A DNA stretch of 63,916 nucleotides from an uncultured Eubacteriales bacterium (lineage in GTDB: Bacteria; Bacillota; Clostridia; Christensenellales; UBA1242), in the NCBI GenBank assembly GCA_949841245.1, contig CATKYT010000004.1, positions 1 to 63,916 on the forward strand. Reading direction: 5' to 3'. Numbering within the stretch: the first letter of the stretch is position 1; each line of letters opens with the position of its first letter. The notes beneath the pieces were generated by a model, which did no database searches, was not told where the DNA came from, and saw only the letters and a list, made by a program, of their open reading frames with translations. The position numbers and the translations under genes are program-made. This document shows, piece after piece, positions 297-48,903 of this stretch.

Positions 297-3200
297 ATGA
301 GAACAGTGATGGCAATTTTTAACAAAAAACCAGACAATCAAAATGACATTTTAGGAGAATCTTACACCCTTGAAGACAAAACTAAACCAGTTTTTCCTTG
401 CCTTGAAATTCAAGAGTTTGAAAAGTTTTCTTCTTATGGTTATAATCTCACTTATTCCACAATCAATGATAACGATTCACAACTTTTTGTTCAAAAAAGA
501 ATTTACAAAAATGGACAAACATTTCTTGACATTGGTTTGCTTAATGATGAAACCAAAGAGTTTAAATATGTAACCGTTAAAAACATCAATGCAATAAAAG
601 ATGATGACGGAACTAATTTGATGGAAATTGAATATTACATCGATTCCTCCAAAGATCTTAAACAAACTGCCAAATGTTTTTTGCCATATAAATTTTCTCC
701 AACAGCAGAAGACCCTGTTGACCATTTAAGTGTGGAACTTAACAAATTACAAAGAAATTTTGAAATTGAACCTTCAAATGTCTATAAAAACAAATTGGAA
801 TTTGGCAGATTAAAGCCAACTGTTTTTCAAACTGTTGAACAGGCAAAAAGTTTCATGACTTTTCAACCTAAAAATTATTGGACCAAAGGTTATACACCTG
901 AATCAAAGATGGTTTATGTTCCTTATAAAAACAACAGCAATGAAACTAATTTTATGAGATTTGAATTAAACAATTCTGGAAAAGTTGACTTACTTTTAAA
1001 TGTCAATGAAAATGTCATTATCAATGTTTCTCCAACAGAATTTGTTGTTGATGCAAAAACTGGCAAGATTGCCATGAAAACCAACTTATCACATGACAAT
1101 AAATTTGACATCCTTCCAATTGACGCCAAAAACAACCCAGAACTCGTTGGCACACTTCAAAGCATTGCAAATGGAAAAGTCACCACTGCAAACTTAGATG
1201 GGTTTGAGTTGCTTCCTTCAAGATTTGTGCAAAATGTGGCAAACCATGCTGTATTTAAAAGAGAAAAAATCACCGAAAACCAACTTATTGTAAAAGAAGT
1301 TGACAGAAATGGTTTTGTTGCTGAAAATGGTGGCAATCCAATGCAACCAACTAATCAAACTGCTGGAAACGCAAACCCTGCTTCTCAGCAGACCGCTCCA
1401 CAGCCACAAACCACACCTGTTGCACCTGCAAATCCACAACCAACTACTGAAAATGAATCAACTCAGCCAGAAAAACCAAAAGGAACGGTAATCGGAGAAC
1501 AATCAAAAGTTTCTTATAATGGCAATTCAGGAATAAATGCACCAAAAATTAACGAATTGGACAATTCAATTTCCATGGATATTTCCATCAGTGGTGGACA
1601 TTTCCAAAATGGTGCAACTCAAAAAATCAAACTTACTGATGAAAAAATTTCATCTGACTATATTGGAAGAACTTTACTTTCAATTTATAAACAAGACAGC
1701 AACAATTCATCCAAAAACATCACATTTGCTTCTGTCACCAAAAATGGAACAAATTATCAACTTCATATTGATAAAGAATCTTTGCAAGCATGTTTAAATA
1801 ATTACGAAATAAGAACAGGAAAGAAATTTCCATTAACAGGAAACATTTTCAACCCACAAACAATCAAAATGTCAGACAGCAACGAACTTCAAGGCGCTGA
1901 AATCAACATTGGAGATGGCAAAACTGTTTCTATATCTTTTGACGCCGCTGGAATGAAAATTGTCAGCACAGAAAAATTGTTTAATGAAGATGGTTCGCCA
2001 AAACTTGATGAAAAAGGAAAACAACAAACACATGATGAAATCGCCTTTTTAAGTTCTGGATCAAGACCACTTGACTTTTCGGTTAACCCACAATTCTTGC
2101 ACGAAGCAGCAACTGTTAATCCAGTTGTTGACAACGAAGGAAATTTAATTGACCCACCACTTCCAAGTGTGAAAATGGAAGGGCATATTGCTGAAAACCT
2201 TATGGTTATGTCAATTTTGCAAGAAAGACAAAAATCTGAAAAGGCAGATGAAAACAAAAAAAGTGCCATTATAACCAGAACATTTGGTGACAACAATGAA
2301 ATTCAAATAAATTCTGTTCCTGTCTATGAAGAAGGTTTGGCTGAACCATATTATTTTAATATCATTCGTGAAAAAAATAAATCTCCACGAATTTTCCTTG
2401 ATATGCGTGCACCAAAACAAGGACAAAAACAAGGTGCCGAACTTGCACCTAAATTCTATGAAATCAAAGAAATTGGCATTGAAGCAAAAAGTGTTGAAGG
2501 TGCAAAAAATGCCAGTGAAAAAGGAAAAGCCGAAGGCTTTGGTCTTTATTTGGGCATTAAATCTGACAACAATAAAGTTCGCTTAAACCTTCCAAACCTT
2601 GCCTATGAAAGTTTTGCAAAAAATGGCATTATCGACTTTCTTGACAACATTCATGAAGGTAATGATGGTTATGTTGGATTTCCTTTCAATGAGTTAAAAT
2701 CAAACATAATCGGTTACAGACAAAAAGGCACTGGAACATATTTTTCAACTTTGCCAAAACCCCTTCCTGCTGGAACAACCGTAAAAGATTTCATGGAAAT
2801 TCATTCCCGCAGTAAAACCAACACAAACACAATTAAAGGCACAAACACAATTGCCAACTTACGCAACAACATAAGTGACATTGTGGAAGAAGAAATTGAA
2901 GAAGTTAAAGATTTCCTTTATCAACCAAAAATTTCTTACGACACCCGCAAAGGACAAAGACTTGAATTTGACAAAAACGGAACGACATCCATTGCCCTTC
3001 CTATGGACAAAAAATTTAATTTTGAAGAAAATACCGCTCAAACAATCACTTTAATCAATGATAAAGAAATCAATGCTGGAATAAACGACACTTACCCTGC
3101 AAATCCAAGTGAAGAAAAAATCATTTCAGTCGCCGACCCTAAAATTGGTGGAGAAACAATCAGTTTCACAAGAACAGTCAATAATGGCGAAACTTCTTTC

Positions 3201-5255
3201 TCTATGAATTTTGATGCAAAATTGTTGCAACAAATGGTTCAAGACTATAAAACCTTAAACAATCAAGATTTTGATTTAGATTTAAGCAAACTTACAGCCG
3301 AAGAAGGAAAAGTAAAATTTGATGTAGATAAAATTCTCATTTCAGATGATTTAAAAATTCAAGGTGTTGAAATCAAGGCCGCAGGGAAAACACTTGCAAT
3401 CGACATTACTGCTGCTGGCTATATGATAAGCAATGGAAAACAAGTTGCCCGCCACAGAATGGAAAAACAACCACTTGATTTCACTTTTAATTCTTCCATT
3501 TTAAATGATGCCGAAACAAACACAAACTTTGAATTAAAAGACGGCAAAATCAAAGATGAGCTTCAAGTTATGGCCATTCAACAAGCTCGCTTTAAGGCAA
3601 GTCAAATGGCAACAAATGAACCTGTAATTCTCAACTATGGAGAAAACTTGACATTATATTCCCTTCCAGTAAAAGTTGGAGATTCCATTCAAAACTTCGT
3701 TTTCAGACAAGAAAAAGGAAAAACACCAGAACTTTATGCAGACTTGGAATCACCAAAAGGTGCTGCAAAACTTGCCCCTAAATTCTCTAAAATAACCCAT
3801 TTGAATATGGAAGCAATGTTTGATGAAGCAGGAAATGTCATTTCATCTGGTTTATATTTGGGAGAAAGAAAAAATCAAAACAACAGTGAAAGCATAAGAA
3901 TTGAAGTTGGAAATGTTGACTTAACTGATAAAACAAGCCAGAATTTACTTACTGTTTTAGAGCAAATTCAAGACAATTCAAAAGGAAATTTCCACTTAAA
4001 CGAATTTATTTCTTCAAATGACAAACAACAAGTTGCTATTCAAGGTTATCGTCAAATTGACACCAACCCTGAAACAGGCGAAAAAACCATTAATATTGTT
4101 AAAAACATTCAAGAAGAAGATGGAGATCCTGAAAAACCAAAAACAGCAGGCAGAGAATATCAACCAGTGTATTCAATCGGTGGAGAAAAATCTTATCATA
4201 TAAATTGGGATAATGTGGCTAAACTTCAAAATAATGCACAAAAAGAAATTGTTGAAAAAGAAAAGCCAGTTGAAAAGAAAGAGCCCGTTTATGATATGCC
4301 AAAAGTTCCTAAAAGAAGAAAGAAAAAAGTCAACGAATACATTTCTACACTCGGGCTTATCGGACTTGGAGTGTTGGCAGCAATTCTTGGAATTATCAAT
4401 CCATTCTTCCTTATTGTTTCAAGTGCTTTATTTGCAACAGTAGTTCTAAAAGATACAGGATTACTTAGTGCCATAGTTGAAGCGTTTGGACCAAGAGATG
4501 AAGATGCATTGGACATTCACAACAATATTGTAAAAACTCGTTCTAAAATTGTGGAAACAGACAAAAGTATCTCTGATGTTCAAGCAAAAATAGATGAAAT
4601 CTTACAGCGTGCTGGAAAAGTTGATGCCAAATCAGGCAAAATCAATTGCAACAAACTTTTGGGCATAAATGGCAATTCTGTAAACATTATGGATGCCAAC
4701 GGAACCCCTGTTGACTTGAAAGACATTAACTTTGATGCAAGTGGCAATCCAATAGACAAAAATGGCAACCCATTGCAAATTAAAGATAAATGCGGATTTA
4801 CTTCAAAGCAAATTCAAGATATTGTTAAAATTCAACAAGATTTAATTGCAAAGCAAGAAGAAATCAAACTTCAAAAAGATGCAAAAAAACAGGCTAAACT
4901 TAAAGAAGATGCCCAATTGCTTGAAGAAGAACAAAGAAAAATCTTTGACCAAAATTTCAACGACATTCAAGAACTTGAAAAAAGAAAAAAACAACTTGAA
5001 AATAAAATTAAAAAACAAAGAAATAAAGCAAGTTCCTTGATTGAAACAGGAGAAGTTTTGTATAACAACGGAACGCCATATGACTTAGATTTAAGAAACG
5101 AATACACAGATGAACAAGGAAATCAGCATACAGGCACAGAAGCATACTATAATCAAAACAACAAGGAAAAATATGATGCCGCTGTTCTTGCAAACAAAAA
5201 TTACAAGGGTAACGCTTCAAATGTTACAGTAAAAAGTGAAGGACCTTCAAAATAA
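297..5255 (+). CDS. Giant hypothetical protein (1652 aa) with an internal duplication, a C-proximal hydrophobic hairpin and a coiled-coil tail
   Basis: Single uninterrupted ORF. No N-terminal signal peptide. P/Q/T-rich linker at aa ~347-395. Two homologous modules at aa ~425-812 and ~943-1253. Hydrophobic stretch at aa ~1348-1384. K/E/Q-rich C-terminus. No family recognised. Confidence 0.85.
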   Translation: MRTVMAIFNKKPDNQNDILGESYTLEDKTKPVFPCLEIQEFEKFSSYGYNLTYSTINDNDSQLFVQKRIYKNGQTFLDIGLLNDETKEFKYVTVKNINAIKDDDGTNLMEIEYYIDSSKDLKQTAKCFLPYKFSPTAEDPVDHLSVELNKLQRNFEIEPSNVYKNKLEFGRLKPTVFQTVEQAKSFMTFQPKNYWTKGYTPESKMVYVPYKNNSNETNFMRFELNNSGKVDLLLNVNENVIINVSPTEFVVDAKTGKIAMKTNLSHDNKFDILPIDAKNNPELVGTLQSIANGKVTTANLDGFELLPSRFVQNVANHAVFKREKITENQLIVKEVDRNGFVAENGGNPMQPTNQTAGNANPASQQTAPQPQTTPVAPANPQPTTENESTQPEKPKGTVIGEQSKVSYNGNSGINAPKINELDNSISMDISISGGHFQNGATQKIKLTDEKISSDYIGRTLLSIYKQDSNNSSKNITFASVTKNGTNYQLHIDKESLQACLNNYEIRTGKKFPLTGNIFNPQTIKMSDSNELQGAEINIGDGKTVSISFDAAGMKIVSTEKLFNEDGSPKLDEKGKQQTHDEIAFLSSGSRPLDFSVNPQFLHEAATVNPVVDNEGNLIDPPLPSVKMEGHIAENLMVMSILQERQKSEKADENKKSAIITRTFGDNNEIQINSVPVYEEGLAEPYYFNIIREKNKSPRIFLDMRAPKQGQKQGAELAPKFYEIKEIGIEAKSVEGAKNASEKGKAEGFGLYLGIKSDNNKVRLNLPNLAYESFAKNGIIDFLDNIHEGNDGYVGFPFNELKSNIIGYRQKGTGTYFSTLPKPLPAGTTVKDFMEIHSRSKTNTNTIKGTNTIANLRNNISDIVEEEIEEVKDFLYQPKISYDTRKGQRLEFDKNGTTSIALPMDKKFNFEENTAQTITLINDKEINAGINDTYPANPSEEKIISVADPKIGGETISFTRTVNNGETSFSMNFDAKLLQQMVQDYKTLNNQDFDLDLSKLTAEEGKVKFDVDKILISDDLKIQGVEIKAAGKTLAIDITAAGYMISNGKQVARHRMEKQPLDFTFNSSILNDAETNTNFELKDGKIKDELQVMAIQQARFKASQMATNEPVILNYGENLTLYSLPVKVGDSIQNFVFRQEKGKTPELYADLESPKGAAKLAPKFSKITHLNMEAMFDEAGNVISSGLYLGERKNQNNSESIRIEVGNVDLTDKTSQNLLTVLEQIQDNSKGNFHLNEFISSNDKQQVAIQGYRQIDTNPETGEKTINIVKNIQEEDGDPEKPKTAGREYQPVYSIGGEKSYHINWDNVAKLQNNAQKEIVEKEKPVEKKEPVYDMPKVPKRRKKKVNEYISTLGLIGLGVLAAILGIINPFFLIVSSALFATVVLKDTGLLSAIVEAFGPRDEDALDIHNNIVKTRSKIVETDKSISDVQAKIDEILQRAGKVDAKSGKINCNKLLGINGNSVNIMDANGTPVDLKDINFDASGNPIDKNGNPLQIKDKCGFTSKQIQDIVKIQQDLIAKQEEIKLQKDAKKQAKLKEDAQLLEEEQRKIFDQNFNDIQELEKRKKQLENKIKKQRNKASSLIETGEVLYNNGTPYDLDLRNEYTDEQGNQHTGTEAYYNQNNKEKYDAAVLANKNYKGNASNVTVKSEGPSK

Positions 5256-6904: not shown

Positions 6905-7630
6905 ATGAATATTGAAGGAAAAAACCAAGTTATTGAAGCAATTAAAAATGACAAAACAATCAACAAAATTTTTGTTGACAAAAACTTTGTTACACGCAAA
7001 GATGATGTCATTTCACTTGCAAGAAAAAATCAAATTAAAGTGGAATTTTTGCCTAAAACGGTTTTAGATAAAATCAGCGTTACGCAACATCATCAAGGAT
7101 ATATTGCTGAAACCGTTGAATTTAACTATTGCAATGTTGAAGACATTTTGCAAAATGCCAAAGACAAAGAACATTCCCCTTTTGTTGTGCTTCTGGACGG
7201 CATTGAAGACCCACATAACTTAGGTGCAATCATCCGCACCTGTGAATGTGCTGGTGTTGACGGAATAATCATCCCAAAAGTGCGTGCTTGTCAAGTAAAT
7301 GAAACAGTTGTCAGAACAAGTGCTGGCGCAATTTCCAACATTAAAATTGCAAGAGTTACCAATTTGAAAAACGCTATTGACACCTTGAAAGATGCCGGAC
7401 TTTGGATTTATGCTGCTGAAACTGGCGGCGAAATTATTTATAATCAAAATCTTACTGGTCCAATAGGCATTGTTGTTGGCAGTGAAGGAGCAGGCGTTAA
7501 ACAATCACTGAGAAGTTATTGTGATGGAATTGTCACCTTGCCACTTTTTGGCAGTGTAAATTCTTTAAATGCCAGTGTGGCAACTGCTGTTGTAATTTAT
7601 GAAATTGTTAGACAAAATTTAAAAAAATAA
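6905..7630 (+). CDS. rlmB: 23S rRNA (guanosine-2'-O)-methyltransferase RlmB (SpoU/TrmH family)
   Basis: SpoU motifs (LDGIEDPHNLGAIIRT, GSEGAGV, SLNASVA). Start placed at the ATG at 6905, preceded by AAGGAAA; the ORF track starts at 6881. Confidence 0.9.
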   Translation: MNIEGKNQVIEAIKNDKTINKIFVDKNFVTRKDDVISLARKNQIKVEFLPKTVLDKISVTQHHQGYIAETVEFNYCNVEDILQNAKDKEHSPFVVLLDGIEDPHNLGAIIRTCECAGVDGIIIPKVRACQVNETVVRTSAGAISNIKIARVTNLKNAIDTLKDAGLWIYAAETGGEIIYNQNLTGPIGIVVGSEGAGVKQSLRSYCDGIVTLPLFGSVNSLNASVATAVVIYEIVRQNLKK

Positions 7631-11667: not shown

Positions 11668-11785
11668 ATTTTATGTTATAAATAATAAAATAAAGATTTT
11701 TTATAAAACTCTTAAATAAAATTTCAAATTAATTATTGAAATGTAAAAACTTTTATGTTAAAATAGAAATAACTAGGAGGTAAAA

Positions 11786-23598: not shown

Positions 23599-26500
23599 TT
23601 AAACAATTTTGTTTAAATATTGTTTTCTGTAATAATCATTGGAATAGATTGTTTTTCCACCTGTCGTAACATAACTTTCACCAGTTACAGAATTTAATTT
23701 TAAAGGTATGGAAACTGTGTCATTCTTGATTCCAATCTTTGTTGAAACAGTCTCAATAAATCTGTATTCTTTGCCATTTACAACATAGGCATCACTTAAA
23801 TCAATTTGAACATTCATATTATCAAAGTTTGCATCACCAGTAAGTGATTTACCTTCTAAGCCCATGCTGAAGCCTGTAAATACTTCTTTCTGGTTTACAG
23901 TTGTAAATATTGGAGCATAACTCATGATTGTTTGTTCCAAACTTGGATTTGGATTCATGCTTGCAATAAGGTCACCAATTTTGTTGTAAACAGTGTCAGT
24001 TAATCCCAACATATAAGCAAAGATTTCCATGATATGACTTCCGATTTCGTCTGCTCTCCAAGATTTAGTAATTTTTTCATCACGCTTCTTCCAAGCAGCC
24101 CAACCTGTATACTTGTTTCCATAAGTGTTTTGAACAAGATTTAAAACGCCATCTTTATATTCCAAAGTGGAAACACGCTTATCAAAACCATATGCAGAAT
24201 AAACTGTATAGGTATTTCCAAATCCGCCAGCATTGTAAGTAACATCAACAAAACTTGGAACAACCATTTCAAGATAAAGTCCAACATCTCCGCTGTCACT
24301 TAATTCAACCAACAAGTCATAGTAAACAGTAATTGCGTCTATGCCAATAATACCAATGCTTGTGCTGCCATTGAAAGCAATGTTCTGTGTGTTAAGTGTG
24401 CTTACAGCAACATCCATAAACTCAGTTATTGAACTTAAATCTATGTGTGCTTTTGTTGTGTCATAGTCAAATTTTTCATCTGTAAATTGGTCAAACTTAA
24501 TTTCAAGATTGATTTTGTTGTCACCAACACAAACACCTGAAATTGCCAGTTTGTTAAGTTTTGAAGTTGTGGTGTCTGCAATTTTATTGTTGGAAATAAC
24601 CAAACTAATTGAAGCATTTTCCCCAAAAGTTTCTTTCAAGTTGATTTTAAGGGTGGTTGTAAAGTTACCAAAAACATCTTCTTCACTTGTTTCCAATTCA
24701 ACTGCACTTAAAACATTTGTAATGTTTGTAATTGATTGCAACATGTCATCAATGTTTGAATTATCATTGTTTTGATTTACATCAATATTCAAAAGTTTTT
24801 GCAAATAAGTGAAATCTGTTTTGCAAGGTTCAAGTCCCCAAGAAATCATTGTTTGTTCGTCCAATTCCATGCCCATAAGCGAAAGAATCATAGAAACCAA
24901 TGTGCTTAAATTAGAATTTTTAACTTTGCCATTAAATTCTTTATTTCCAACCAAATCTCCGTGAGAATAAGAGAGATAAAGTTCACCTGAATCGTTACTT
25001 TCATAGAAAACAGACATTTTATGTTGAACATCAGTGTCATCAATTAAAGACTGAATGTTGATGTCAACATCACCTAAAACTTTGATATAATTATTGTCAA
25101 ACCAAGACAAAACTTGTTCACCCAATTCTTCATCTTTATCAAAGACAGGAACATCTGTAAGTTGATTTATTTTTAAAGTTAAATCTGAACCTTCATTAAT
25201 TTTAATAATTTGACTTTCACTTGCCACACTGCCAGAAAGACCCAATTGATAGTTGAAACTTGTAAGATAGTCATAAGCAGAAAGAAGTGGCAATAATTCA
25301 CTGTAATGATGGAAATCTGAAATATTCAATACAACATCATTTGCTACAAAGCCTGTAAGTTCACCATTTTCAATGACAAAATTGTCAGAAATTTGAGATG
25401 CATTTCCAGCAGTCAAGTTGTAAATGTAAACCGCAAAATTTTTGTTTCCAGTAAGGTCATAATCTTCAATTAATTCTCCATTTACTGTAAGCAAATAATC
25501 TTTATAACCATTTTCATTAAGTGTTGTGTTTTTATCGTCAATGTTCGCACCAAGAGTTATTGCACTTGGAAGCAATTTGCTTCCATCTTTTTGAACAATC
25601 ACTTTTGCAACAATGTCATAGAAACTTGCTTGACTTGCGTAATAGAAATTATCTTTAATGTTTATTTGAACACCAAAATTTGTTTCATTTTCTTCTGTAA
25701 GTTCAAAAATCCATTGTCCATAAATTTCTGTCAGACTTGGCAAAACCATTTTAAAGGTTTCAGCAGTTTCAACAAATGAAATCGCATCCGAAGAAGTAAA
25801 TTGGTTGAAAATTTCCATTATTTCAGAAATAGTTTGTTCATTTAAGTCAGCATAAACTTGAAGACCAGTGATGCTGATGTAAACTGTGTTGTCAACCAAG
25901 AAGATGTAACTGTCAAGTCCCAAAGAACTTGTATAGAAAGCAACAGCAGGAACATAACCATCAATCAAACCTTTGTGGTCATCATCTTTAATAAGAATTC
26001 CAACCAAACTTCCAAAGAATTGGTTTGTGCTGTAACGAACAGCAAGGTCTGTGTTGAAAGAGTAAATTCCATCAGTTATTTTGAAACTGTCTAAAATTCC
26101 TTCAACAATGTCAGTTGTGTAAGTTTCATAATCACCAGAATTTATGACATCAATTGTGGATTTTTCAACATAATTAACCACAACTTTTCCGCTTAAAACA
26201 GAACAATCAATTTGTGCTTCTGTCAACTTATTTTCTTCATTGCTGAATGTCAATTTTGCCACAACTTTGTTGTTGTAATAGAGTTCCAACGCAACACAAG
26301 TGCTGTTTGCAGACAATTTTAAATTCTTGAAAAAGTCTTGAACAGTGTAGTTTTGAAGCACATCAATCACCGGTTGCAAATCTCCAAAGTCAATGTCAAC
26401 ACCAAGTTTGTCTGATGTCAATGAGTTTAAAATTTCAATCAAATCAAAATTTGAATTTCCCTGATTTTGTGGAACAGCAACTTTAAATTTCATGTTGGCA

Positions 26501-28110
26501 TAATTTACAAAAATGTAACTATCTTGAATATTAATTTTCAAATTTTCGCCAAATAAATTTAAAACTGAAATTTCCATTTTTCCATTGAAATATTTAAATG
26601 TTCCGTTTAAATCCAAGCCATTAAAATTCACAACAAAGTCAAACTCATAAATTCCATTTTCAATATACATCAAGAAATTTAATACAGGAAGCAAGTTTAC
26701 AGCATCACAATATCCAGTATCATCAAACACAATTACTTTGCCGTCATAAATGTTTGCACTTAAATTTACATTTTCAGAGTTTACTGAAACTCCATTAAGC
26801 ACACCTGCATCTTGAGTTAAAACAATTTCAAGTCCAGCATTCCAAAGTATGCTATATTCGTTTTCAGTCATGACTGCTTGGTCTGGAAGATAAGAAAGAA
26901 TTTTATTTAAATCCAATTTTTCAGAAACATCAGAAATAATGTCATTAAAGTCAAATTCACCATTATCTGAACCATTGTTTTTCAAAAGTTTTTCAATAAT
27001 GCTTACAATAAATTCTTTTGTTGTCAATGATGTTGCATTTTGAATTGTTTTATCCAACGCGTCTTTAAACTTGTTATAATCTTCAACATTAAACTTAACT
27101 TTAATATTTTCAAGTTGAACATAAACAGTTTCATCAGCATAAACAACGCAAGCATTTACCCCTTGGTTGAAATCAAACTTAACTTTAAGTCCATCAGTTC
27201 TGTCAACTGTAAGCAAACCACCGTAACTTTCACCATTAATTTCAAAATCTAAATCAGCAGAAACAATTTCTTTATTGTTCAATTCTTTTGCATAAGAGAT
27301 ATAATCCATAATGCCGTCAAGTTCAATTTCATTTTCAGGTTTTTCATATTGAACTTCGAAATCTTCACTGTTCATAGCATTTACATTTGCAATTAAACTG
27401 ATTCCGCCAAGTGTGCTGTGATGCGCTTTTGCAGATGTTATGTTAAAGTTTTCATCACAATAAACAAGTGCTTCAAGTTTTCCAAATTTAATATTAAATT
27501 TATATGTTCCATCATCCAAAATTTCTTCCTTTGTTTCTAAACTTGAAAGAATAGTTGTGGAATCAATCTTTGACAAATCAACACCAATTATGGCTGACAC
27601 TTTGGATAAAATGGCATCAGTATTGATGTTGACATTGTTAAACACAAAATCTAAAACTGCTGACATGTCCATGTCAGTTGCTTTTGATATGTCAAATTTA
27701 TAGTTTTTTCCATTCAAAGAAAGGTGCAAACACGAATTCACATAACCAGCAGACACAGCAAAACTTTGACCATTATAAGCCAAAAGCGTTTCAAAGGCAA
27801 ATTCTTGTTTTTCCATGTCAAAAGCAACCTTGCTGTTTTTGGCAGAGAAATCAATGTTTCCATTTTTCACATTAAGATCAAAATTCACATCAATGTTTTT
27901 AAATTTGGAAAAACTTTGCACAAATTCTGCAAAATAATTTTCTTCTTCGGCGCTTGCTCCCAAAACTGGCAAAGTGATTGGTCCTGACTCAATCTTACCA
28001 AAAATTTGAATATAGCCAAAGAAAACAAGCAAAGTCATTATAATATAAAGGGAAAATGCTTTAAACATTTTTGGAACAAGGTTTCCAACTTTTTTAATTG
28101 GTCTTTCCAT
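23599..28110 (-). CDS. Giant N-terminally anchored hypothetical protein (1503 aa)
   Basis: Start set at the ATG at 28110-28108 behind GGAGGTGA (MERPIKK...); the ORF track starts 7 codons earlier. One N-terminal TM (FSLYIIMTLLVFFGYIQIF), then about 1450 aa rich in N/D/S/V/I and predicted beta-rich. No family recognised. Confidence 0.85.
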   Translation of the reverse strand: MERPIKKVGNLVPKMFKAFSLYIIMTLLVFFGYIQIFGKIESGPITLPVLGASAEEENYFAEFVQSFSKFKNIDVNFDLNVKNGNIDFSAKNSKVAFDMEKQEFAFETLLAYNGQSFAVSAGYVNSCLHLSLNGKNYKFDISKATDMDMSAVLDFVFNNVNINTDAILSKVSAIIGVDLSKIDSTTILSSLETKEEILDDGTYKFNIKFGKLEALVYCDENFNITSAKAHHSTLGGISLIANVNAMNSEDFEVQYEKPENEIELDGIMDYISYAKELNNKEIVSADLDFEINGESYGGLLTVDRTDGLKVKFDFNQGVNACVVYADETVYVQLENIKVKFNVEDYNKFKDALDKTIQNATSLTTKEFIVSIIEKLLKNNGSDNGEFDFNDIISDVSEKLDLNKILSYLPDQAVMTENEYSILWNAGLEIVLTQDAGVLNGVSVNSENVNLSANIYDGKVIVFDDTGYCDAVNLLPVLNFLMYIENGIYEFDFVVNFNGLDLNGTFKYFNGKMEISVLNLFGENLKINIQDSYIFVNYANMKFKVAVPQNQGNSNFDLIEILNSLTSDKLGVDIDFGDLQPVIDVLQNYTVQDFFKNLKLSANSTCVALELYYNNKVVAKLTFSNEENKLTEAQIDCSVLSGKVVVNYVEKSTIDVINSGDYETYTTDIVEGILDSFKITDGIYSFNTDLAVRYSTNQFFGSLVGILIKDDDHKGLIDGYVPAVAFYTSSLGLDSYIFLVDNTVYISITGLQVYADLNEQTISEIMEIFNQFTSSDAISFVETAETFKMVLPSLTEIYGQWIFELTEENETNFGVQINIKDNFYYASQASFYDIVAKVIVQKDGSKLLPSAITLGANIDDKNTTLNENGYKDYLLTVNGELIEDYDLTGNKNFAVYIYNLTAGNASQISDNFVIENGELTGFVANDVVLNISDFHHYSELLPLLSAYDYLTSFNYQLGLSGSVASESQIIKINEGSDLTLKINQLTDVPVFDKDEELGEQVLSWFDNNYIKVLGDVDINIQSLIDDTDVQHKMSVFYESNDSGELYLSYSHGDLVGNKEFNGKVKNSNLSTLVSMILSLMGMELDEQTMISWGLEPCKTDFTYLQKLLNIDVNQNNDNSNIDDMLQSITNITNVLSAVELETSEEDVFGNFTTTLKINLKETFGENASISLVISNNKIADTTTSKLNKLAISGVCVGDNKINLEIKFDQFTDEKFDYDTTKAHIDLSSITEFMDVAVSTLNTQNIAFNGSTSIGIIGIDAITVYYDLLVELSDSGDVGLYLEMVVPSFVDVTYNAGGFGNTYTVYSAYGFDKRVSTLEYKDGVLNLVQNTYGNKYTGWAAWKKRDEKITKSWRADEIGSHIMEIFAYMLGLTDTVYNKIGDLIASMNPNPSLEQTIMSYAPIFTTVNQKEVFTGFSMGLEGKSLTGDANFDNMNVQIDLSDAYVVNGKEYRFIETVSTKIGIKNDTVSIPLKLNSVTGESYVTTGGKTIYSNDYYRKQYLNKIV

Positions 28111-29054
28111 TAAATCACCTCCCCATTGCAAACTGCATCATAAGAAGGCAAATTGTCATATTGGAAAGTTTCAACAAAATCATCAGTAACACCCATGTAA
28201 CCAAGCCCAGAAACATACATCTTATATTTTTCTGTGTATTTAATGGAAACAAAACGGAAATCACTTCCAACTGTGACAGTCATCTTTAAACTGTCCCACT
28301 TAGGCAATTTTTCAAAACCACTGGAAAATCTGATTTCATAAGAATAATACAAAGCGGAAAAAGCCAAATAATCTCCGCTTAAATTGATGTCAAAAGAATA
28401 TGTGTCATCACTGTTTTTGACAACTTTTGAAACAGCAGATGCCGGACACACTTTGGATGAAATAATGTAAGGCAGATAAGATGTAGGTTGAGTGTTAAAC
28501 GCTTCTACATATTGTTTATTGTTGAAAGTTTGAAAATCTGCTTCATTAAAAGTAAATCTGTAACCATTTTTAGGGTCATCATATGGATTGGTAATGTTTA
28601 AGTTTGAATTCAACTTGACTTCATCTAAATTGTCAAGATTAAATCTTACTTGTGAATGAATTGGTGGAGACATAGAATTTGTAGAAGGGCTTAATTTGTT
28701 GTAAACAAACTTGCCTTCTGTTTTCAATTTTTCGCCTCTCATATTTTGCTTAATGCCCATAGGAGCATTAACAAGCCCAACCATAACTTTAAAGAAATCA
28801 TTTTCAGCAAGATAATGTTCGGCAATTTGAAAAAGTTGAACACCCGAAAAAAGTGAAACATCTTTTCCGCCAAGCGCTTCATTAATCAGTTTTTCAATGT
28901 CTTCTGGCTTATCTCTTAAATCGCTTTCATTTGCAGAGATGTTTGGATTGGCTTCAAGAGTTCCGACATAGATTTGTCCCACAGAAACACCTGTCACCAA
29001 GGCAATGGCGAAAATGACAATAAAACTCATTATTTTCCTATAATTAAGTGCCAT
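28110..29054 (-). CDS. N-terminally anchored hypothetical protein (314 aa), translationally coupled to the 1503-aa gene
   Basis: TM segment IMSFIVIFAIALVTGVSVG. Its TAA stop overlaps the downstream ATG (TAATG) at 28110. GGAGA RBS. Confidence 0.85.
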   Translation of the reverse strand: MALNYRKIMSFIVIFAIALVTGVSVGQIYVGTLEANPNISANESDLRDKPEDIEKLINEALGGKDVSLFSGVQLFQIAEHYLAENDFFKVMVGLVNAPMGIKQNMRGEKLKTEGKFVYNKLSPSTNSMSPPIHSQVRFNLDNLDEVKLNSNLNITNPYDDPKNGYRFTFNEADFQTFNNKQYVEAFNTQPTSYLPYIISSKVCPASAVSKVVKNSDDTYSFDINLSGDYLAFSALYYSYEIRFSSGFEKLPKWDSLKMTVTVGSDFRFVSIKYTEKYKMYVSGLGYMGVTDDFVETFQYDNLPSYDAVCNGEVI

Positions 29055-30587: not shown

Positions 30588-33209
30588 TTAAAGTTCACGT
30601 TCGCCACCTGGAACAAATAAATACTTATCACCATTTTCAGCAACTGCAGCTGTTGTAGTATTTTCATTTTCGTCTTCAACTGGTTTAACAGTGCCGTTAT
30701 TGTCTGTTGTCATATTTTTTTCGGATTCACCTTGTCTGTAACCATTATAGTCAGATTTACCAAGAGCAACTAATACTGCTTTTTGTTCATAGTCAGCATC
30801 GTTATTGAACTTTGTTGCAGAAATTTTGCAACTTCCTTGTGTTGTAATAACACCATTTACAGTGTATTCATAAGTGCAAACATTTACATTATATTCAGCA
30901 TCTGGCTTGCTTACAAAAACATAAACTTCGTTAGCATTTTCCATTTCGCCTTCATGAGCACCTGTAAAGAATTTTGTTCCCAAACATGCTTCAGTTGCAT
31001 TTTCTGTCAAAAGCAAATCATTTACATCGTCCAATGTAACCTTTCCATCGTTTCCTTTGTCAGCTCCAACAACTTTATAAAGTTTTTGACCATCTTCTGA
31101 CTTAACAATTACTGTAACTTTTCCGTCTTTAACTTCTGTTACAACGCTTTGTAAGTCTAACTTTTCACCAAACTTATCTTCAAGTTTTTCAGCAATAGTA
31201 GCATTATTGATGCTTACATCACCGTTTGTGTTTACGTTAGTATCACTATTTGTATTACCATCGCCTTTGTTGTTGCCTTCACTATTATTTGTAATATGAA
31301 TACCAAGAGCTACTGCACCTGTAATCAAACCAAAAGCAACAATTGGTGCAAATATTGCTGCCATAATTTTTAATGTTTTTTTAGTAGCAGGAGAAAGTGG
31401 TTTTTTAGTTCTTTTCTTAACCCCACCTTGTTGTGGAACAACTAGTGCGTTTTCTTTTTCTTCCTGAGCATGCAAATCTCTAAGGTGTTTATTTACAATG
31501 TCAACAACTTGATTTTTAACAGGTGGCATTTCGCCGTCATATTTTACTTCAAAATTTTTGTTTTCTTTGTAAGCATTTTCAATTTCAACTCGCCATTCTT
31601 CAACATCTTTCCCACCAAATACATGTTTCATTTCAAGAGCAAGAGTTCTTACAATTACATCATGTTTTTCTTTGTTTGAAGCATATCTCAAAGCATCTTG
31701 AATTGTCCATGAAATCAACTTTTTATTGAGATCCAAAACATAATTTTGAGTTCCTTCTTCCGTAGCTTCATATCTTTTTCCACTATCTATTGCTTTGCGA
31801 ATTTCTGCTTCCCAGTCTGCCTTTTTGAAGTCTAAATTCCATTTTCCAGTTAATGTTTCAGCAAGAGCAGAGATTTCATAATCTCTGTTTTCTTCATAAT
31901 GAATATCAGAAATAAATCTATTCAAATCGTTGACAAGGACTTTTTGTTCTTCACTTATATTTTCAGTAGAAACGGCAGTTTCTTTTCCAGTTTTTCCATA
32001 AACTCTTGTAATTTCAGCCAACCAAGTTTTTACAGTTTTTTTGCCACCCAACTTAGCCAAATTTTCAGCATATACTTCAAAAACAGTCTTCAAATTATCT
32101 TGTGCTTCAACTCCACGAACAGCATTTTTAATTTGCAAATCAATTAAATCTCTGTTTGCATTTAAAAAGGCTTGTTTTTGTGTAGCACTGTAAGGAACTT
32201 GTGAATCAATTACGAATAATTGACCATTTTCTACAAGATTAAGAATTTCTTCTTCCCAACCTTTTTGGTCACGACCAGTATCCAATTTTAAATTAACAAA
32301 TCTTCCTGCAAGTTTAGAAACCAAGTCTTCCACTTCTTCTTCATAATGGAAGTTTTCAAAATGACTGTTAACCAAATCAACAACATTTTGTTGTTCTTCA
32401 GTCAATTCAACTGGTTGTTTGTTTTCATCTATAAAATTGTATTGCAAACCATTATTATAATTTTTTCTAACATTTTCAACAGTTAACAAATTTTCAACTT
32501 CAGGAAAAACTCTTTGCAATTCATATGAAAACAATTTAAACGCAGCGTTGCGTCTTTCATCAAGTGGAATTTTTCTGAAATCATCTGAATATTCTGCTTC
32601 ATCTAAAAGGTACTTAAGATAATTTCCATATTTTAAAGTAAAATCAACATCATTTGATGAATTTACAGGTTTTGGTTCTGTTTTAACTTCTGGTTGTGCA
32701 GGTTGTTGTTCAACAACTGGTGCTTCTGCTGGTTCATTTACCACAGCAGGTTCTGTTTCAACCACTTGTTCTTCAACGACTGGTTGTGTTGGTTGTTCAA
32801 CTGGTTGACCTTCTTGTGCAACAACACCTTGTTTGATTTCATTTTCGTTCATTTTTTCATCCCCCTTTTTGTTTGCCGCTTGATTTATTTTTCTCTTAGT
32901 TTTAAATTCTTTAATTTTTGCTATAATCTGATCGTTATATACATGATCTTCACGGTCTAATGAATCTTTATCTCCTATTTCAACTTGACTTAAACTTGGA
33001 TTATCCAATTTAAATTTGCTGAACTTAACAGCATTTACTTCTCCCGTAGCTGAATTATCACTGAAAGTTCTATAATAAACATTAAGAGTTGATTCGTCAA
33101 TTAAGAAAATGTATTCTGTTCCACCACTTGAACGACCAATAAAAGTTTTATCTTTATTTTCTTCAAGTTGACATAACTCATTAAATCTCTTTTTACTTGG
33201 TTTTGCCAT
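30588..33209 (-). CDS. Single-pass membrane protein (873 aa) with a repeated cytoplasmic module; unknown function
   Basis: GGGAGGTG RBS. E/P/Q/V-rich linker (aa ~128-182). Three copies of a motif ending in ...HYEEE / ...HYEEN / ...HAQEE. TM at aa ~613-638 (31296-31373). About 235-aa C-terminal ectodomain. Confidence 0.85.
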   Translation of the reverse strand: MAKPSKKRFNELCQLEENKDKTFIGRSSGGTEYIFLIDESTLNVYYRTFSDNSATGEVNAVKFSKFKLDNPSLSQVEIGDKDSLDREDHVYNDQIIAKIKEFKTKRKINQAANKKGDEKMNENEIKQGVVAQEGQPVEQPTQPVVEEQVVETEPAVVNEPAEAPVVEQQPAQPEVKTEPKPVNSSNDVDFTLKYGNYLKYLLDEAEYSDDFRKIPLDERRNAAFKLFSYELQRVFPEVENLLTVENVRKNYNNGLQYNFIDENKQPVELTEEQQNVVDLVNSHFENFHYEEEVEDLVSKLAGRFVNLKLDTGRDQKGWEEEILNLVENGQLFVIDSQVPYSATQKQAFLNANRDLIDLQIKNAVRGVEAQDNLKTVFEVYAENLAKLGGKKTVKTWLAEITRVYGKTGKETAVSTENISEEQKVLVNDLNRFISDIHYEENRDYEISALAETLTGKWNLDFKKADWEAEIRKAIDSGKRYEATEEGTQNYVLDLNKKLISWTIQDALRYASNKEKHDVIVRTLALEMKHVFGGKDVEEWRVEIENAYKENKNFEVKYDGEMPPVKNQVVDIVNKHLRDLHAQEEKENALVVPQQGGVKKRTKKPLSPATKKTLKIMAAIFAPIVAFGLITGAVALGIHITNNSEGNNKGDGNTNSDTNVNTNGDVSINNATIAEKLEDKFGEKLDLQSVVTEVKDGKVTVIVKSEDGQKLYKVVGADKGNDGKVTLDDVNDLLLTENATEACLGTKFFTGAHEGEMENANEVYVFVSKPDAEYNVNVCTYEYTVNGVITTQGSCKISATKFNNDADYEQKAVLVALGKSDYNGYRQGESEKNMTTDNNGTVKPVEDENENTTTAAVAENGDKYLFVPGGEREL

Positions 33210-44077: not shown

Positions 44078-44133
44078 CAATCTTTCCTTTTTATTATTTT
44101 ACACCAATTTAACCTGAAAAGCAATTAATTAAA

Positions 44134-44160
44134 ACAAAAAAACGACTGCATTAGTCGTTT
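44134..44160 (-). terminator. Rho-independent terminator (copy A of a duplicated terminator)
   Basis: Minus-sense ACGACT-AATGC-AGTCGT followed by T7. Near-identical to 44336-44363. Confidence 0.8.
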
Positions 44161-44176
44161 AAGTTTTTTTGTTAAA

Positions 44177-44318
44177 TGGCAGGGGTGGCAGGGTTTGTCA
44201 CAGGTTGTCGCACAACCGCCGACCCATTGTCACTTACCCGCCCTTGGGTCGAGCCTACGCATAAGTAGGTTCAGCAAAACACAGTTTTGCAAAAAGTCTT
44301 TGACTTTTTAATCCTGCC
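44177..44318 (-). ncRNA. Structured element derived from the tRNA-Gln(UUG) T-arm (unclassified). It has an inverted T-arm, a direct T-arm and the acceptor 3' strand with CCA; both T-loops are split by hairpin inserts
   Basis: Minus sense: GGCAGG-ATT-[AAAAAGTC-AAA-GACTTTTT]-[GCAAAAC-TGT-GTTTTGC]-TGAACCTAC-TTATGC-GTAGG-CT-[CGACCCA-18nt-TGGGTCG]-GC-[GGTTG-TGCGA-CAACC]-TGTGA-CAAACCCTGCCACCCCTGCCA. Homologous in architecture to 46709-46839. Whether it acts as RNA is not known. Confidence 0.55.
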
Positions 44319-44335
44319 GTTATAACTTTTTGTAA

Positions 44336-44363
44336 ACAAAAAAAACGACTGCATTAGTCGTTT
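44336..44363 (-). terminator. Rho-independent terminator after tRNA-Gln(UUG) (copy B)
   Basis: Same hairpin as copy A, followed by a T-run. Confidence 0.8.
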
Positions 44364-44379
44364 AGGTTTTTTTGTTAAA

Positions 44380-44454
44380 TGGCAGGGGTGGCAGGATTTG
44401 AACCTACGCATGCAAGAATCAAAATCTTGTGCCTTACCGCTTGGCGACACCCCT
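44380..44454 (-). tRNA. tRNA-Gln (UUG)
   Basis: AGGGGTG/CACCCCT acceptor stem, CAAGA-TTTTGAT-TCTTG anticodon arm, GTAGG-TTCAAAT-CCTGC T-arm, encoded CCA. Confidence 0.92.
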
Positions 44455-44461
44455 ATAAATT

Positions 44462-44537
44462 TGGTGGCTCGCCCGGGATTCGAACCCGGGACCCCTTGAT
44501 TAAAAGTCAAGTGCTCTACCGACTGAGCTAGCGAACC
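44462..44537 (-). tRNA. tRNA-Lys (UUU)
   Basis: GGTTCGC acceptor stem, CTTGA-CTTTTAA-TCAAG anticodon arm, CCGGG-TTCGAAT-CCCGG T-arm, encoded CCA. Confidence 0.92.
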
Positions 44538-44688
44538 GTGTCACAAACATCACTCTTGCTCACTTTCATTTAAAATGAAAATTCTGCTTTTAATGTTTAC
44601 ATCTTATTAAAAAATGTAAACCATGTCCATCTTCGCAAGACCAACAACCATATTCCCCGCATAAGCCAAAATAATCGTAAATTATATT

Positions 44689-44764
44689 TGGCTGGGGTGG
44701 TAGGATTCGAACCTACGCAATGTTGGAGTCAGAGTCCAATGCCTTACCGCTTGGCGACACCCCA
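44689..44764 (-). tRNA. tRNA-Gln (CUG)
   Basis: TGGGGTG/CACCCCA acceptor stem, TTGGA-CTCTGAC-TCCAA anticodon arm, GTAGG-TTCGAAT-CCTAC T-arm, encoded CCA. Confidence 0.92.
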
Positions 44765-44796
44765 TCGAGTCCGCCAAGAGTAAGCGGAAATTTATA

Positions 44797-44873
44797 TGGG
44801 GTGGTCTAAGAGAATCGAACTCTTGACCTCCAGAGCCACAATCTGGCGTTCTACCAACTGAACTAAGACCACC
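44797..44873 (-). tRNA. tRNA-His (GUG)
   Basis: Extra G-1 opposite C73, CCAGA-TTGTGGC-TCTGG anticodon arm, AAGAG-TTCGATT-CTCTT T-arm, encoded CCA. Confidence 0.92.
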
Positions 44874-44933
44874 ACATGTCATGACCTAAATTATTCTTGG
44901 TCATTCCTTTTTCCCAAAAATGTTACACATTAT

Positions 44934-45013
44934 TGGGAGCCCTGTCTTTTCGCACCAGCAATCTTCCAGGAGTAATTGCAAATGCGTAAAATCGCAGATT
45001 GCTGGTGCTCCCA
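44934..45013 (-). other. Long hairpin pairing the 3' end of tRNA-Arg with a downstream inverted copy
   Basis: Minus-sense GCACCAGCAATCT (45008-44996) pairs perfectly with AGATTGCTGGTGC (44964-44952) across a 31-nt loop. After a 10-nt bulge, GCTCCCA (44940-44934) complements the acceptor strand TGGGAGC. Confidence 0.6.
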
Positions 45014-45079
45014 GAAGGATTCGAACCTTCGACCTTTGCCTTAGAAGGGCACTGCTCTATCCAGCTGAGCTATGGAAGC
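45003..45079 (-). tRNA. tRNA-Arg (UCU)
   Basis: GCTTCCA/TGGGAGC acceptor stem, CTTCTAA anticodon loop, GAAGG-TTCGAAT-CCTTC T-arm, encoded CCA. Confidence 0.9.
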
Positions 45080-45083
45080 AGAA

Positions 45084-45157
45084 TGGAGCAGGTGAAGGGA
45101 ATCGGACCCTCGCAACCAGCTTGGAAGGCTAGTGTTCTACCACTGAACTACACCTGC
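45084..45157 (-). tRNA. tRNA-Gly (UCC)
   Basis: GCAGGTG/CACCTGC acceptor stem, CTAGC-CTTCCAA-GCTGG anticodon arm, U73 discriminator, encoded CCA. First gene of the minus-strand array, 4 nt before tRNA-Arg. Confidence 0.9.
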
Positions 45158-46590: not shown

Positions 46591-46683
46591 GGAAACGTAT
46601 CGAAGTGGTCGCACCGAGCCGCACTCGAAATGCGGTTGTCAGGGAAACTTGGCACGTGGGTTCGAATCCCACCGTTTCCGCCA
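46591..46683 (+). tRNA. tRNA-Ser (CGA)
   Basis: Class II tRNA, GGAAACG/CGTTTCC acceptor stem, CCGCA-CTCGAAA-TGCGG anticodon arm, long variable arm, GTGGG-TTCGAAT-CCCAC T-arm, encoded CCA. Confidence 0.9.
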
Positions 46684-46708
46684 TTTCAAAAATTTTAAGT
46701 TAATAAAA

Positions 46709-46839
46709 GGTGGGATTAAATGCAAAGCATTCCACAAACTTTGTTTGTGCGAACCCACGCTCCATGGGCTCAACCCTTGGTCGAAGAAGAAACTATGGGT
46801 TGTCGGCTCCGCCTGAAACGAATTCCACCGTTTCCGCCA
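46709..46839 (+). ncRNA. Structured element derived from the tRNA-Ser(CGA) T-arm (unclassified); same architecture as 44177-44318
   Basis: GGTGGG-ATT-[AATGC-AAA-GCATT]-C-[CACAAAC-TTT-GTTTGTG]-CGAACCCAC-GCTCCAT-GGG-CT-[CAACCC-20nt-GGGTTG]-TCGGCTCCGCCTGAAA-CGAATTCCACCGTTTCCGCCA. Lies 25 nt after the tRNA with no terminator in between. Confidence 0.55.
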
Positions 46840-46968
46840 TTTTAAAAATTTTGTTCTTTTGCTTAATAAAAAGCAACTCTTAAATTTAAAGAAGTTTAAA
46901 CAAAAAAGGCCTGTTGAATTAACAGTTTTTTATTATATCAAGTCAATCTTATCACATACCTAAATTTC

Positions 46969-47872: not shown

Positions 47873-48835
<963 letters not shown>

Positions 48836-48903
48836 TGAAACCTCCAAGAGAGCATTTTGCTCCCAATAACATTTTATGATAAAAATGAAATTCGGTTAAA
48901 AAG

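Follow-up and report, generated by a model that had tools for sequence, protein, structure and literature searches.

The window analysed here, 63,916 nucleotides (nt) of contig CATKYT010000004.1 with 32.8% G+C, is chromosomal DNA of an uncultured gut bacterium of the Clostridia and carries two homologous structured blocks, one directly behind the gene for tRNA-Gln(UUG) and one behind that for tRNA-Ser(CGA). Both blocks are insertions which are polymorphic among near-identical strains. They are gene-less and specific for the 3' side of a tRNA gene, and each brings a replacement tail for that gene, constant hairpins which covary and arms which match the target. It is put at about even odds (a probability near 0.5) that they represent a family of miniature, non-autonomous integrative elements of 156–203 nt which, in uncultured gut Clostridia, target particular tRNA genes at their 3' region. 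The mobility of the element is well supported, and for its mechanism we infer the course set out further below. The element would be a new variant of tRNA-targeted integrative DNA, and no description of such an element was found in literature searches.

Architecture and copies of the element

The gene for tRNA-Gln(UUG) (44380..44454, minus strand; ARAGORN, Rfam 62.8 bits) is intact and is the last of the tRNA array Gly-Arg-His-Gln(CUG)-Lys-Gln(UUG) (45157..44380, minus strand; ARAGORN). A terminator and an A-rich spacer follow it, and then a structured block of 142 nt (44318..44177, minus strand) in the order S1, hp1, hp2, S2, TTATGC, S3, hp3, GC, hp4, TGTGA and S4, ending with CAAACCCTGCCACCCCTGCCA after TGTGA. 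This layout had been given in the initial annotation and was confirmed by direct reading, apart from the hairpin insert within the direct T-arm copy, which measures 54 nt rather than 53. All parts lie on the minus strand. S1 (GGCAGGATT, 44310..44318) and S2 (TGAACCTAC, 44265..44273) are, by sequence and repeat search, the reverse complements of T-arm positions 58–66 (AATCCTGCC) and 49–57 (GTAGGTTCA) respectively, and each is complementary to the real tRNA at 9 of 9 positions. Between them lie the hairpins hp1 (AAAAAGTC-AAA-GACTTTTT, 44291..44309) and hp2 (GCAAAAC-TGT-GTTTTGC, 44274..44290). The terminal loop TTATGC (44259..44264) leads from the inverted to the direct left arm, S3 (GTAGGCT, 44252..44258), which is a direct copy of the 5' strand of the T-stem together with T54 and T55 (positions 49–55), with T54 changed to C. 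The next hairpin, hp3 (CGACCCA, a loop of 18 nt and TGGGTCG; 44220..44251), shows the strongest conservation of all modules in the family, in alignment and folds (GGCTCRACCC...TGGGTYG). It is followed by hp4 (GGTTG-TGCGA-CAACC, 44203..44217), which reads GGC-TYC-GCC in the other copies, and by the linker TGTGA (44198..44202; family consensus TGNRA in the alignment) before the direct right arm S4 (CAAACCCTGCC). S4 continues into ACCCCTG-CCA, the remaining tRNA tail, and then into a second terminator.

The tail of the block forms one half of a direct repeat. Its distal copy (44130..44197, minus strand) comprises S4 with the change T60C, the acceptor 3' strand, CCA, the trailer and a terminator (ACTTAAAC, T7). 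The proximal copy (44333..44400, minus strand), recognised by the repeat search and by its markers relative to an empty allele (L004, see below), runs from C56 of the T-loop through CCA and the trailer to a terminator of the ACCTAAAC variant with T8. Between the proximal copy and the inverted arm lies the A-rich spacer (the ACAAAAAGTTATAAC region, 44319..44332, minus strand), which has AAGTTA(A)TAA in common with the Ser copy. In the repeat search the two repeat copies aligned over 68 nt with 94% identity, differing by two substitutions (T60C in the T-loop and C/T in the terminator) and in the T8/T7 length, which agrees with the duplicated 3' block with two substitutions and a 1-nt indel reported before. 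An intrinsic-terminator-like hairpin is included in both. The Gln element is therefore flanked by two terminators; it has no promoter-like site, and no open reading frame (ORF) is present in either insertion (156–203 nt). It should also be noted that the palindrome GCATGC precedes the T-arm of tRNA-Gln.

The intact tRNA-Ser(CGA) gene (46591..46683, plus strand; ARAGORN and an Rfam tRNA match) is followed by a block which had been described as having the same architecture, and which was found to be homologous to and collinear with the Gln block, with the same order of parts and Ser-specific arms. This core (46709..46839, plus strand) scored 128.3 bits with the covariance model described below and is 100% identical in two other assemblies (L057 and L058). 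On the plus strand it consists of S1 (GGTGGGATT, 46709-46717), hp1 (46719-46731), hp2 (46733-46749), S2 (CGAACCCAC, 46750-46758), the loop (46759-46763), S3 (ATGGGCT, 46764-46770), hp3 (46771-46802), hp4 (46805-46813), the linker TGAAA (46814-46818) and S4 with acceptor strand and CCA (46819-46839). From sequence and alignment, the proximal repeat copy extends from C56 to CCA+13 (46663..46696, plus strand), and the distal copy (46819..46852, plus strand) carries C61T and a T at CCA+4.

Within the window there are exactly two occurrences of the core GGCTCRACCC-N18-ATGGGTYG; the expectation from shuffles is 0.00. A third copy was obtained in a metagenome scan with the hp2 and hp3 pattern and is represented by two independent records (L077 and L079). 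It stands behind tRNA-Gln(UUG), inside a tRNA array and upstream of tRNA-Lys, in a relative with 37% G+C; its repeat of 26 nt spans C56 to CCA+5 with both copies identical, and the insertion period is 162 nt. A fourth copy, at the start of contig L067 and cut by the contig end, has tRNA-Gln(CUG) and a small terminator-like hairpin in front of it. The known copies thus number four, in three related lineages of gut Clostridia, and all are short, collinear and placed directly behind a tRNA gene, which is what a search among relatives had been proposed to establish. An assembly artefact was rejected since the Gln, Ser and L077 copies each recur in one or more further independent assemblies, L057 having the Gln block, and L057 and L058 both having the Ser block.

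A covariance model built from the four copies and run over the whole window with filters off returned only the two known copies and their opposite-strand mirror images, and over all fetched loci and viral pattern hits it returned nothing beyond the known copies. No family member was identified in 185,579 species-representative genomes scanned for the hp3 core (GGCTCRACCCN{12,24}ATGGGTYGNCGG), the 51 hits, in high-GC hosts, being judged uninspected to be due to chance. Five pattern scans were made in IMG/VR (core, Gln arms, Ser arms, hp2 with hp3). Three had 0 hits, and the last, for hp2 with hp3, gave 29 loci of which none was confirmed by the covariance model (15 bits for the best two). One IMG/VR locus, L084, was read and is situated in coding-like sequence with no tRNA nearby. 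Comparison of two element copies by blastn against 50,697 phage records gave no relevant match, and no family of Rfam 15 matched, the best non-tRNA hit having 18 bits against a threshold of 55 bits. The early statement that no described family fits this design therefore stands for Rfam, the phage records, IMG/VR and the species-genome pattern scan. A tRNA gene or pseudogene was also rejected: ARAGORN and Rfam at the gathering threshold call the upstream tRNAs only, and a permissive Rfam scan downstream of each tRNA gave no tRNA match, in keeping with the view that the block is not a tRNA pseudogene of the usual kind. Elsewhere, the tRNA array of L109 (P0051) is without the element up to the contig end, the P0049 contig is without the upstream region, and in more distant relatives, reached through homologues of the CYTH gene which follows the Gln locus, synteny with the tRNA array is lost.

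To describe the fold, six helices (S1/S4, hp1, hp2, S2/S3, hp3 and hp4) were scored on an alignment of the window Gln and Ser copies, the Gln copy of L077 (the same as that of L079) and the copy of L067, which is incomplete at the contig end. These helices contain 38 pairs, with 96.1% of the cells paired and 10 pairs changed on both sides. None of 500 shuffles reached the observed covariation, and register-shift controls were paired in 31–54% of cells. The covariation of the stems which had first been seen between two copies thus holds with four, and with it the proposal of a conserved structured element. Six of the pairs changed on both sides are in hp1 (3 of 8) and hp2 (3 of 7, with 100% of cells paired), the loops of which are variable, as is expected of a constraint based on structure and not on sequence. 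The helices are almost purely Watson-Crick, with one G-U pair among about 124 paired cells. When folded as single-stranded DNA, both strands of the three complete copies gave the same closed multi-helix fold (z-scores of -2.25 to -5.23), with S1/S4 and S2/S3 paired in the minimum-free-energy folds in every case. The rarity of G-U pairs and the equal foldability of both strands point to a constraint at the level of DNA rather than of an RNA made from one strand.

The element therefore consists of a constant scaffold of four hairpins set among four arms which are rewritten for each target tRNA, in the order anti-R, hp1, hp2, anti-L, loop, L, hp3, hp4 and R. Among its constants are the linker TGNRA after hp4 and hp3 in the form GGCTCRACCC...TGGGTYG-NC-GG. 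In all three complete copies S1 and S2 together are complementary to the cognate T-arm at 18 of 18 positions, which answers the earlier question of whether the arms match the adjacent tRNA. The direct arms deviate from the real T-arm, with C54 in 4/4 copies, T60C in the Gln copy and C61T in the Ser copy. It is thus the real target which the inverted arms follow, and both duplexes that mimic it are flanked by conserved mispairs. The points at which the copies are split are staggered by 2 nt around C56-A57, at 55|56 in the direct copy and 57|58 in the inverted copy.

Insertion polymorphism and site of crossover

Occupied and empty alleles were located in public assemblies by means of the neighbouring proteins. 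In the empty Gln allele L004, the terminator variant of the distal copy comes directly after tRNA-Gln(UUG), and then the CYTH gene. Global alignment of L004 with the window showed 58 of the 59 tRNA bases before the gap to be identical (base 1 differs), as well as 203/203 nt after it, and the gap relative to the occupied allele is exactly 203 nt. The contig L058, from a metagenome-assembled genome at NCBI, starts with an empty Gln junction like that of L004. L057, in which the element is present at Gln, is from the same sample as L004, so both Gln alleles coexist in one community. For the Ser locus, the empty allele L070 is without exactly 156 nt, its flanks differing from the window at approximately 20 of 545 positions (manual count on the alignment), and the start of L069 has the same tRNA-to-downstream junction. 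The related species represented by L067, with a neighbouring protein of 79% identity, has tRNA-Ser without the element. Four of five Logan contigs begin inside or just downstream of the repeat. Even on a conservative reading, the insertion accounts for small strain-level differences in these tRNA arrays and for breaks of short-read assemblies at this position.

Since nothing distinguishes the Gln flanks of the two alleles, the three sites at which the repeat copies differ can serve as markers. At T-loop position 60 the empty allele carries T, and its terminator is of the ACTTAAAC/T7 type. The proximal copy of the occupied allele combines T60 with the ACCTAAAC/T8 terminator, and its distal copy combines C60 with that of the ACTTAAAC/T7 type. 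The proximal copy hence differs from both the distal copy and the empty allele at two terminator markers, and the distal copy is identical to the empty allele from CCTGCC onward. Judged by these markers, the repeat copy adjoining tRNA-Gln is foreign and is an element-borne replacement tail, and the terminator of the distal copy is the original chromosomal one. The element thus carries its own tRNA segment, from the middle of the T-loop through CCA into the trailer, and the 3' portion of the present tRNA-Gln(UUG) gene, from somewhere right of T-loop position 60 onward, is derived from it.

One reciprocal exchange between an element copy and the chromosomal gene would produce the insertion, leaving the tRNA intact and the displaced tail downstream. 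The incoming Gln element would have carried ...TGTGA-CAAAC-CCTGCC...ACCTAAAC...T8-GTTTACAAAAAG, and the crossover probably took place inside CCTGCCACCCCTGCCATTTAACAAAAAAAC, that is, in the 3' strand of the T-stem, the acceptor strand, CCA or the first 20 nt of the trailer. The Gln markers place it 3' of the T-loop and not inside the T-loop, from which it follows that the split direct T-arm copy, through at least position 60, would belong to the element and not merely to the displaced tail. For Ser, comparison with a diverged reference allele suggests a crossover beyond CCA+4. An excised circle would be expected to have a junction with a distal-type left side (TGTGA-CAAAC-CCTGCC...) joined to a proximal-type terminator (AAAAAAACCTAAAC...T8-GTTTACAAAAAG). 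In another strain with the same CYTH protein, a contig (L001:1-20) starts in a distal-type tail with CCTGTC instead of CCTGCC when compared with window positions 44177-44197; this extra change, in a T-stem copy which is no longer functional, fits a displaced tail in decay.

Proposed mobility and alternative explanations

In a single strand of the element, anti-R would pair with R and anti-L with L to give the closed six-helix fold, and the two short duplexes of this fold would reproduce the two halves of the T-arm duplex of the tRNA gene. By analogy with the folded attachment sites discussed below, this target mimic may be the recombination site, offered to a trans-acting recombinase which would read the constant hairpins. 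Double-stranded circles below approximately 200 base pairs cyclise poorly; an insertion unit of only 156–203 nt would be awkward as such a circle and easy as a single strand, and the unit is most plausibly mobile as single-stranded DNA. The short form is probably the mobile unit itself because all four copies are short and collinear. The earlier suggestion of a hairpin-targeted single-stranded DNA element is plausible and compatible with the predicted folds. A more specific version can be offered only tentatively, namely a self-folding, gene-less single-stranded DNA micro-element of about 160–200 nt, of which these would be the first examples, whose site is a programmable T-arm mimic on the four-hairpin scaffold, which is retargeted by rewriting of its arms and which is mobilised and possibly also packaged by a helper, for example a filamentous phage or a recombinase. 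If the proposal is correct, these are among the smallest site-specific integrative elements known, and their choice of target is written in short nucleic-acid arms and not in protein, at the T-arm used by many integrases. The principle of a folded single-stranded site, as in CTX-type phages and integron cassettes, would be extended to tRNA genes and to Gram-positive gut anaerobes, and the existence of a recombinase which reads a compact hairpin scaffold would be implied.

A number of observations weigh against an integrative element of this kind. Neither a recombinase nor a circular form nor a longer parent element came to light, with no recombinase domain among the scanned window ORFs of at least 150 amino acids (Pfam) or in the annotations of neighbours. 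The 36 and 54 nt of hairpins between the mimic duplexes are unlike any characterised tyrosine-recombinase core, and the crossover (61 to +20 for Gln; apparently beyond +4 for Ser) would lie at or beyond the R duplex and not between the duplexes. The inverted arms fit the real tRNA better than they fit the direct arms: position 54 is mismatched in every copy, as A.C where S2 is intact (three copies) and as T.C in L067, and two copies have mismatches at 60/61. It could be, then, that the arms pair not with one another but with the target. Taken together, the hairpin-filled centre, the position of the crossover and the better target match of the inverted arms make a guide-like role possible, in which the arms would pair with the target strands. 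The window copies have opposite orientations relative to the apparent direction of replication, and RecA-type homologous recombination through the 26–68-nt repeat may also be a route of insertion or deletion. The generality of the family is also thin, as there are n=4 copies, three of them behind tRNA-Gln.

The known systems closest in habit are the integrative elements which insert into tRNA genes by tyrosine integrases, with a T-loop or a 3'-end sublocation, and their integrase-less derivatives, for example the cis-mobilisable elements (CIMEs) of Streptococcus thermophilus. As in these systems, the tRNA is restored by an element-borne 3' copy and the displaced tail forms a direct repeat starting in the T-loop, such a 3'-segment repeat beside an intact tRNA being present at Gln, Ser and L077. 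Empty and occupied alleles likewise coexist (empty attB-like alleles are L004 and L058 for Gln and L070 and L069 for Ser), and the recombinase would come in trans, no integrase gene being detected inside or adjacent to the element in the Pfam scan of window ORFs and the neighbour annotations. The element differs from tRNA-targeting elements in its size of 156–203 nt, its lack of genes, its inverted and second split direct T-arm copies and its four conserved hairpins. The IS200/IS605-derived PATEs and the REPINs are likewise tiny, gene-less and dominated by hairpins; their intermediates are presumed to be single-stranded, and their transposase acts in trans. They insert beside a 4–5-nt motif without target duplication, and their arms do not copy the target; a PATE was rejected as 26–68-nt direct repeats flank every complete copy.

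In the attP(+) site of CTX phage, a folded single-stranded attachment site is recombined with dif by XerCD (PMC3442271). The element resembles it in having inverted target-like sites which, in the predicted folds, form a duplex imitating the target, and in the integrated order of inverted copy, loop, direct copy and chromosomal half-site, here anti-R...anti-L, loop, L...R (PMC3442271). It differs in its target, a tRNA T-arm and 3' end instead of dif, in the four hairpins between the duplexes, in the absence of a phage genome and in a crossover which would lie at or beyond the R duplex. The topology of integron attC sites, which are recognised through their structure and not their sequence, R''-L''-loop-L'-R' (PMC4792948), is also matched, and as in attC sites pairing is retained along with conserved mispaired positions and otherwise little conservation of sequence. 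The RYYYAAC/GTTRRRY boxes of attC are absent, the corresponding boxes being copies of the adjacent tRNA. An attC site was rejected on its ends (GGCAGGATT/AAACCCTGCC and GGTGGGATT/AATTCCACC), the nearby GTTATAA and GTTAATA not fitting GTTRRRY, and no integron integrase, attI or cassette array was found in the window.

Of the explanations which dispense with a present-day mobile unit, the one that deserves most attention, though it is still unlikely, is an inert scar in which attL/attR ends and attP arms have been left fused by an ordinary integrase-encoding prophage or integrative and conjugative element after deletion of its interior. A duplicated 3' segment of a tRNA around an insertion is the classical signature of an integrase, and the tRNA array of L077 is followed within 4 kb by a block with Zot-like and replication-initiator-like genes, so mobile DNA does visit these arrays. 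Independent deletions would not, however, converge on the same short, cargo-free architecture in 4/4 copies at two tRNAs in three lineages, the compensatory changes show the stems to be still under selection, and an attP site would need no inverted copy of the target. The core and arm patterns were also without a match in IMG/VR, as was the element among the phage records. The initial annotation had allowed for a scar or a miniature derivative of an element recombining in tRNA T-loops. The empty alleles and the foreign tail favour the miniature derivative recombining at tRNA genes, but the Gln crossover would not be inside the T-loop, and 'miniature mobile unit' is more apt than 'scar' given that all four copies are short. 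A replication accident by template switching at the palindromic T-arm, with no mobility at all, would produce the observed order of direct, inverted and direct copies, and the GCATGC palindrome lies at a suitable place. It is nevertheless very improbable, being already contradicted by the homology of the Gln and Ser copies: four hairpins which are not derived from tRNA recur at two tRNAs and in other lineages, and the proximal repeat copy has foreign markers despite identical flanks.

Two further explanations, both improbable and to a similar degree, assign the arms a role in pairing with the target. The element may be a structured RNA produced by read-through from the tRNA, with 18 nt of antisense arms acting on the T-arm of the tRNA or its precursor, or with the tRNA-like 3' half acting as a mimic, so as to regulate tRNA maturation or to sequester a factor which binds tRNA. 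S1 and S2 are perfectly antisense to the real T-arm in the complete copies, for which the direct arms are imperfect partners, a strong terminator after the tRNA is missing at the Ser and L077 copies, which are within a transcription unit, and the Gln copy has an RNA fold z-score of -3.3. On the other hand, that score is only -1.75 for the Ser copy, no Rfam family matches, the element is dispensable in near-identical strains, and near-pure Watson-Crick helices which fold equally on both strands are more typical of constraint on DNA. For the Gln copy in particular, the co-transcribed RNA considered at the outset is disfavoured by the good intrinsic terminator in between, the lack of a promoter-like site and the near absence of G-U pairs. 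The other possibility is a guide module, the transcript or single strand of which would pair with both strands of the T-arm and programme a guided recombinase encoded elsewhere, in the manner of the solo non-coding modules carried along by IS110-family transposases. Constant hairpins with target-specific arms, rewritten between Gln and Ser and complementary to both target strands, would suit it, as they recall the short programmable segments for both target strands held in a constant hairpin scaffold in the bridge (seek) RNAs of IS110/IS1111 elements; the splits staggered by 2 nt are a further likeness. There is also the precedent of ssr9 of ISPpu9, a non-coding minicircle propagated by an IS110-family transposase, which is likewise a small non-coding module able to spread on its own by means of a transposase encoded elsewhere (PMC12288879). 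The geometry is unlike that of bridge RNAs, and this identification was rejected by the strand criterion for the guides (PMC11208160), because the two halves of a split copy always pair with one and the same strand (sense for S1 and S2, antisense for S3 and S4). In addition, no DEDD recombinase gene was found in the window or beside the L077 copy, nor any other recombinase among the scanned window ORFs, the Gln copy has no promoter, and a direct repeat as long as 26–68 nt is not a feature of IS110.

Neighbouring tRNA arrays and genomic context

Further irregularities were seen in the tRNA arrays. A spacer of about 130 nt (44873-45002, minus strand) lies after tRNA-Arg and before tRNA-His in the window and holds an inverted split copy of the tRNA-Arg acceptor 3' end (TGGTGC-gaaaagacagg-GCTCCCA) beside a GCAATCT...AGATTGC inverted repeat; the tRNA-Arg tail could form a long hairpin with the spacer copy. 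The Arg-His gap is only 4 nt in L077 and L109, and in L067 the spacer, again of about 130 nt, is a different one (L067:291-421) and likewise contains TGGTGC. This spacer may be another kind of insertion matching a tRNA tail. The tRNA-Lys(UUU) gene (44462-44537, minus strand) between Gln(CUG) and Gln(UUG) is present in the window, L057 and L058. In L004, which shares the CYTH protein, a spacer of 26 nt takes the place of the gene (L004:83-108), L109 has a window-like spacer ending ...TGTTTGTGACAT-TATAGGGG and no tRNA-Lys (L109:1508-1776), and in L077 tRNA-Lys comes after Gln(UUG) and the element.

A second repeat family, designated 'B', was found directly after the CCA of three different tRNAs in three genomes (L109:1508-1650; L067:2106-2290; L077:12045..11890, minus strand). 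It reads AAAAAATCTGCACTTTTGC...GATTTTTTTGC...(C)CGCCAAAYGAAAA-hairpin-TTTTGCGGTGACTT and contains CCGCCA as a pseudo tRNA 3' end. The L077 and L067 members end with GTAGGC(T/G)CAACC, the motif formed by S3 and the 5' strand of hp3.

Zot-like proteins are a hallmark of filamentous single-stranded DNA phages. In L077 (35-637 and 8020-8868) a Zot-like assembly ATPase is encoded approximately 3 kb from the tRNA array (Pfam Zot 1e-11; PHROG 197 1.4e-16) and a protein weakly similar to phage replication initiators approximately 11 kb from it, with many small ORFs without matches beside the array. A 20-nt inverted repeat of 95% identity (7179-7198 / 11748-11767) encloses 4.5 kb, its end being 41 nt downstream of tRNA-Lys; the enclosed segment may be a small integrated filamentous-phage-like element. 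Lys-type arms were searched for around the Zot-bearing segment and none was found to link these genes to the element, and the Zot-like protein has no relatives in IMG/VR.

The remainder of the window encodes housekeeping functions, among them gyrB, gyrA, several aminoacyl-tRNA synthetases, dnaG, sigA and groEL. Its GyrB falls in a 90%-identity cluster shared with 'Candidatus Caccovivens sp.'. Three long ORFs at 297-5255 (plus strand), 23599-28131 (minus strand) and 30588-33209 (minus strand), of 1652, 1510 and 873 amino acids respectively, gave no Pfam match at E<=0.001. Gene orientation switches at about 23,500, from plus-strand genes up to 23541 to minus-strand genes from 23599, and the GC skew turns from positive to negative there, resembling a region of converging replication forks. 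The gene at 47873-48847 (minus strand) contains runs of the 9-mer ACAGGTSCA and encodes a collagen-triple-helix repeat protein with a BclA C-terminal domain of the exosporium type, which suggests that the host is a spore-former.

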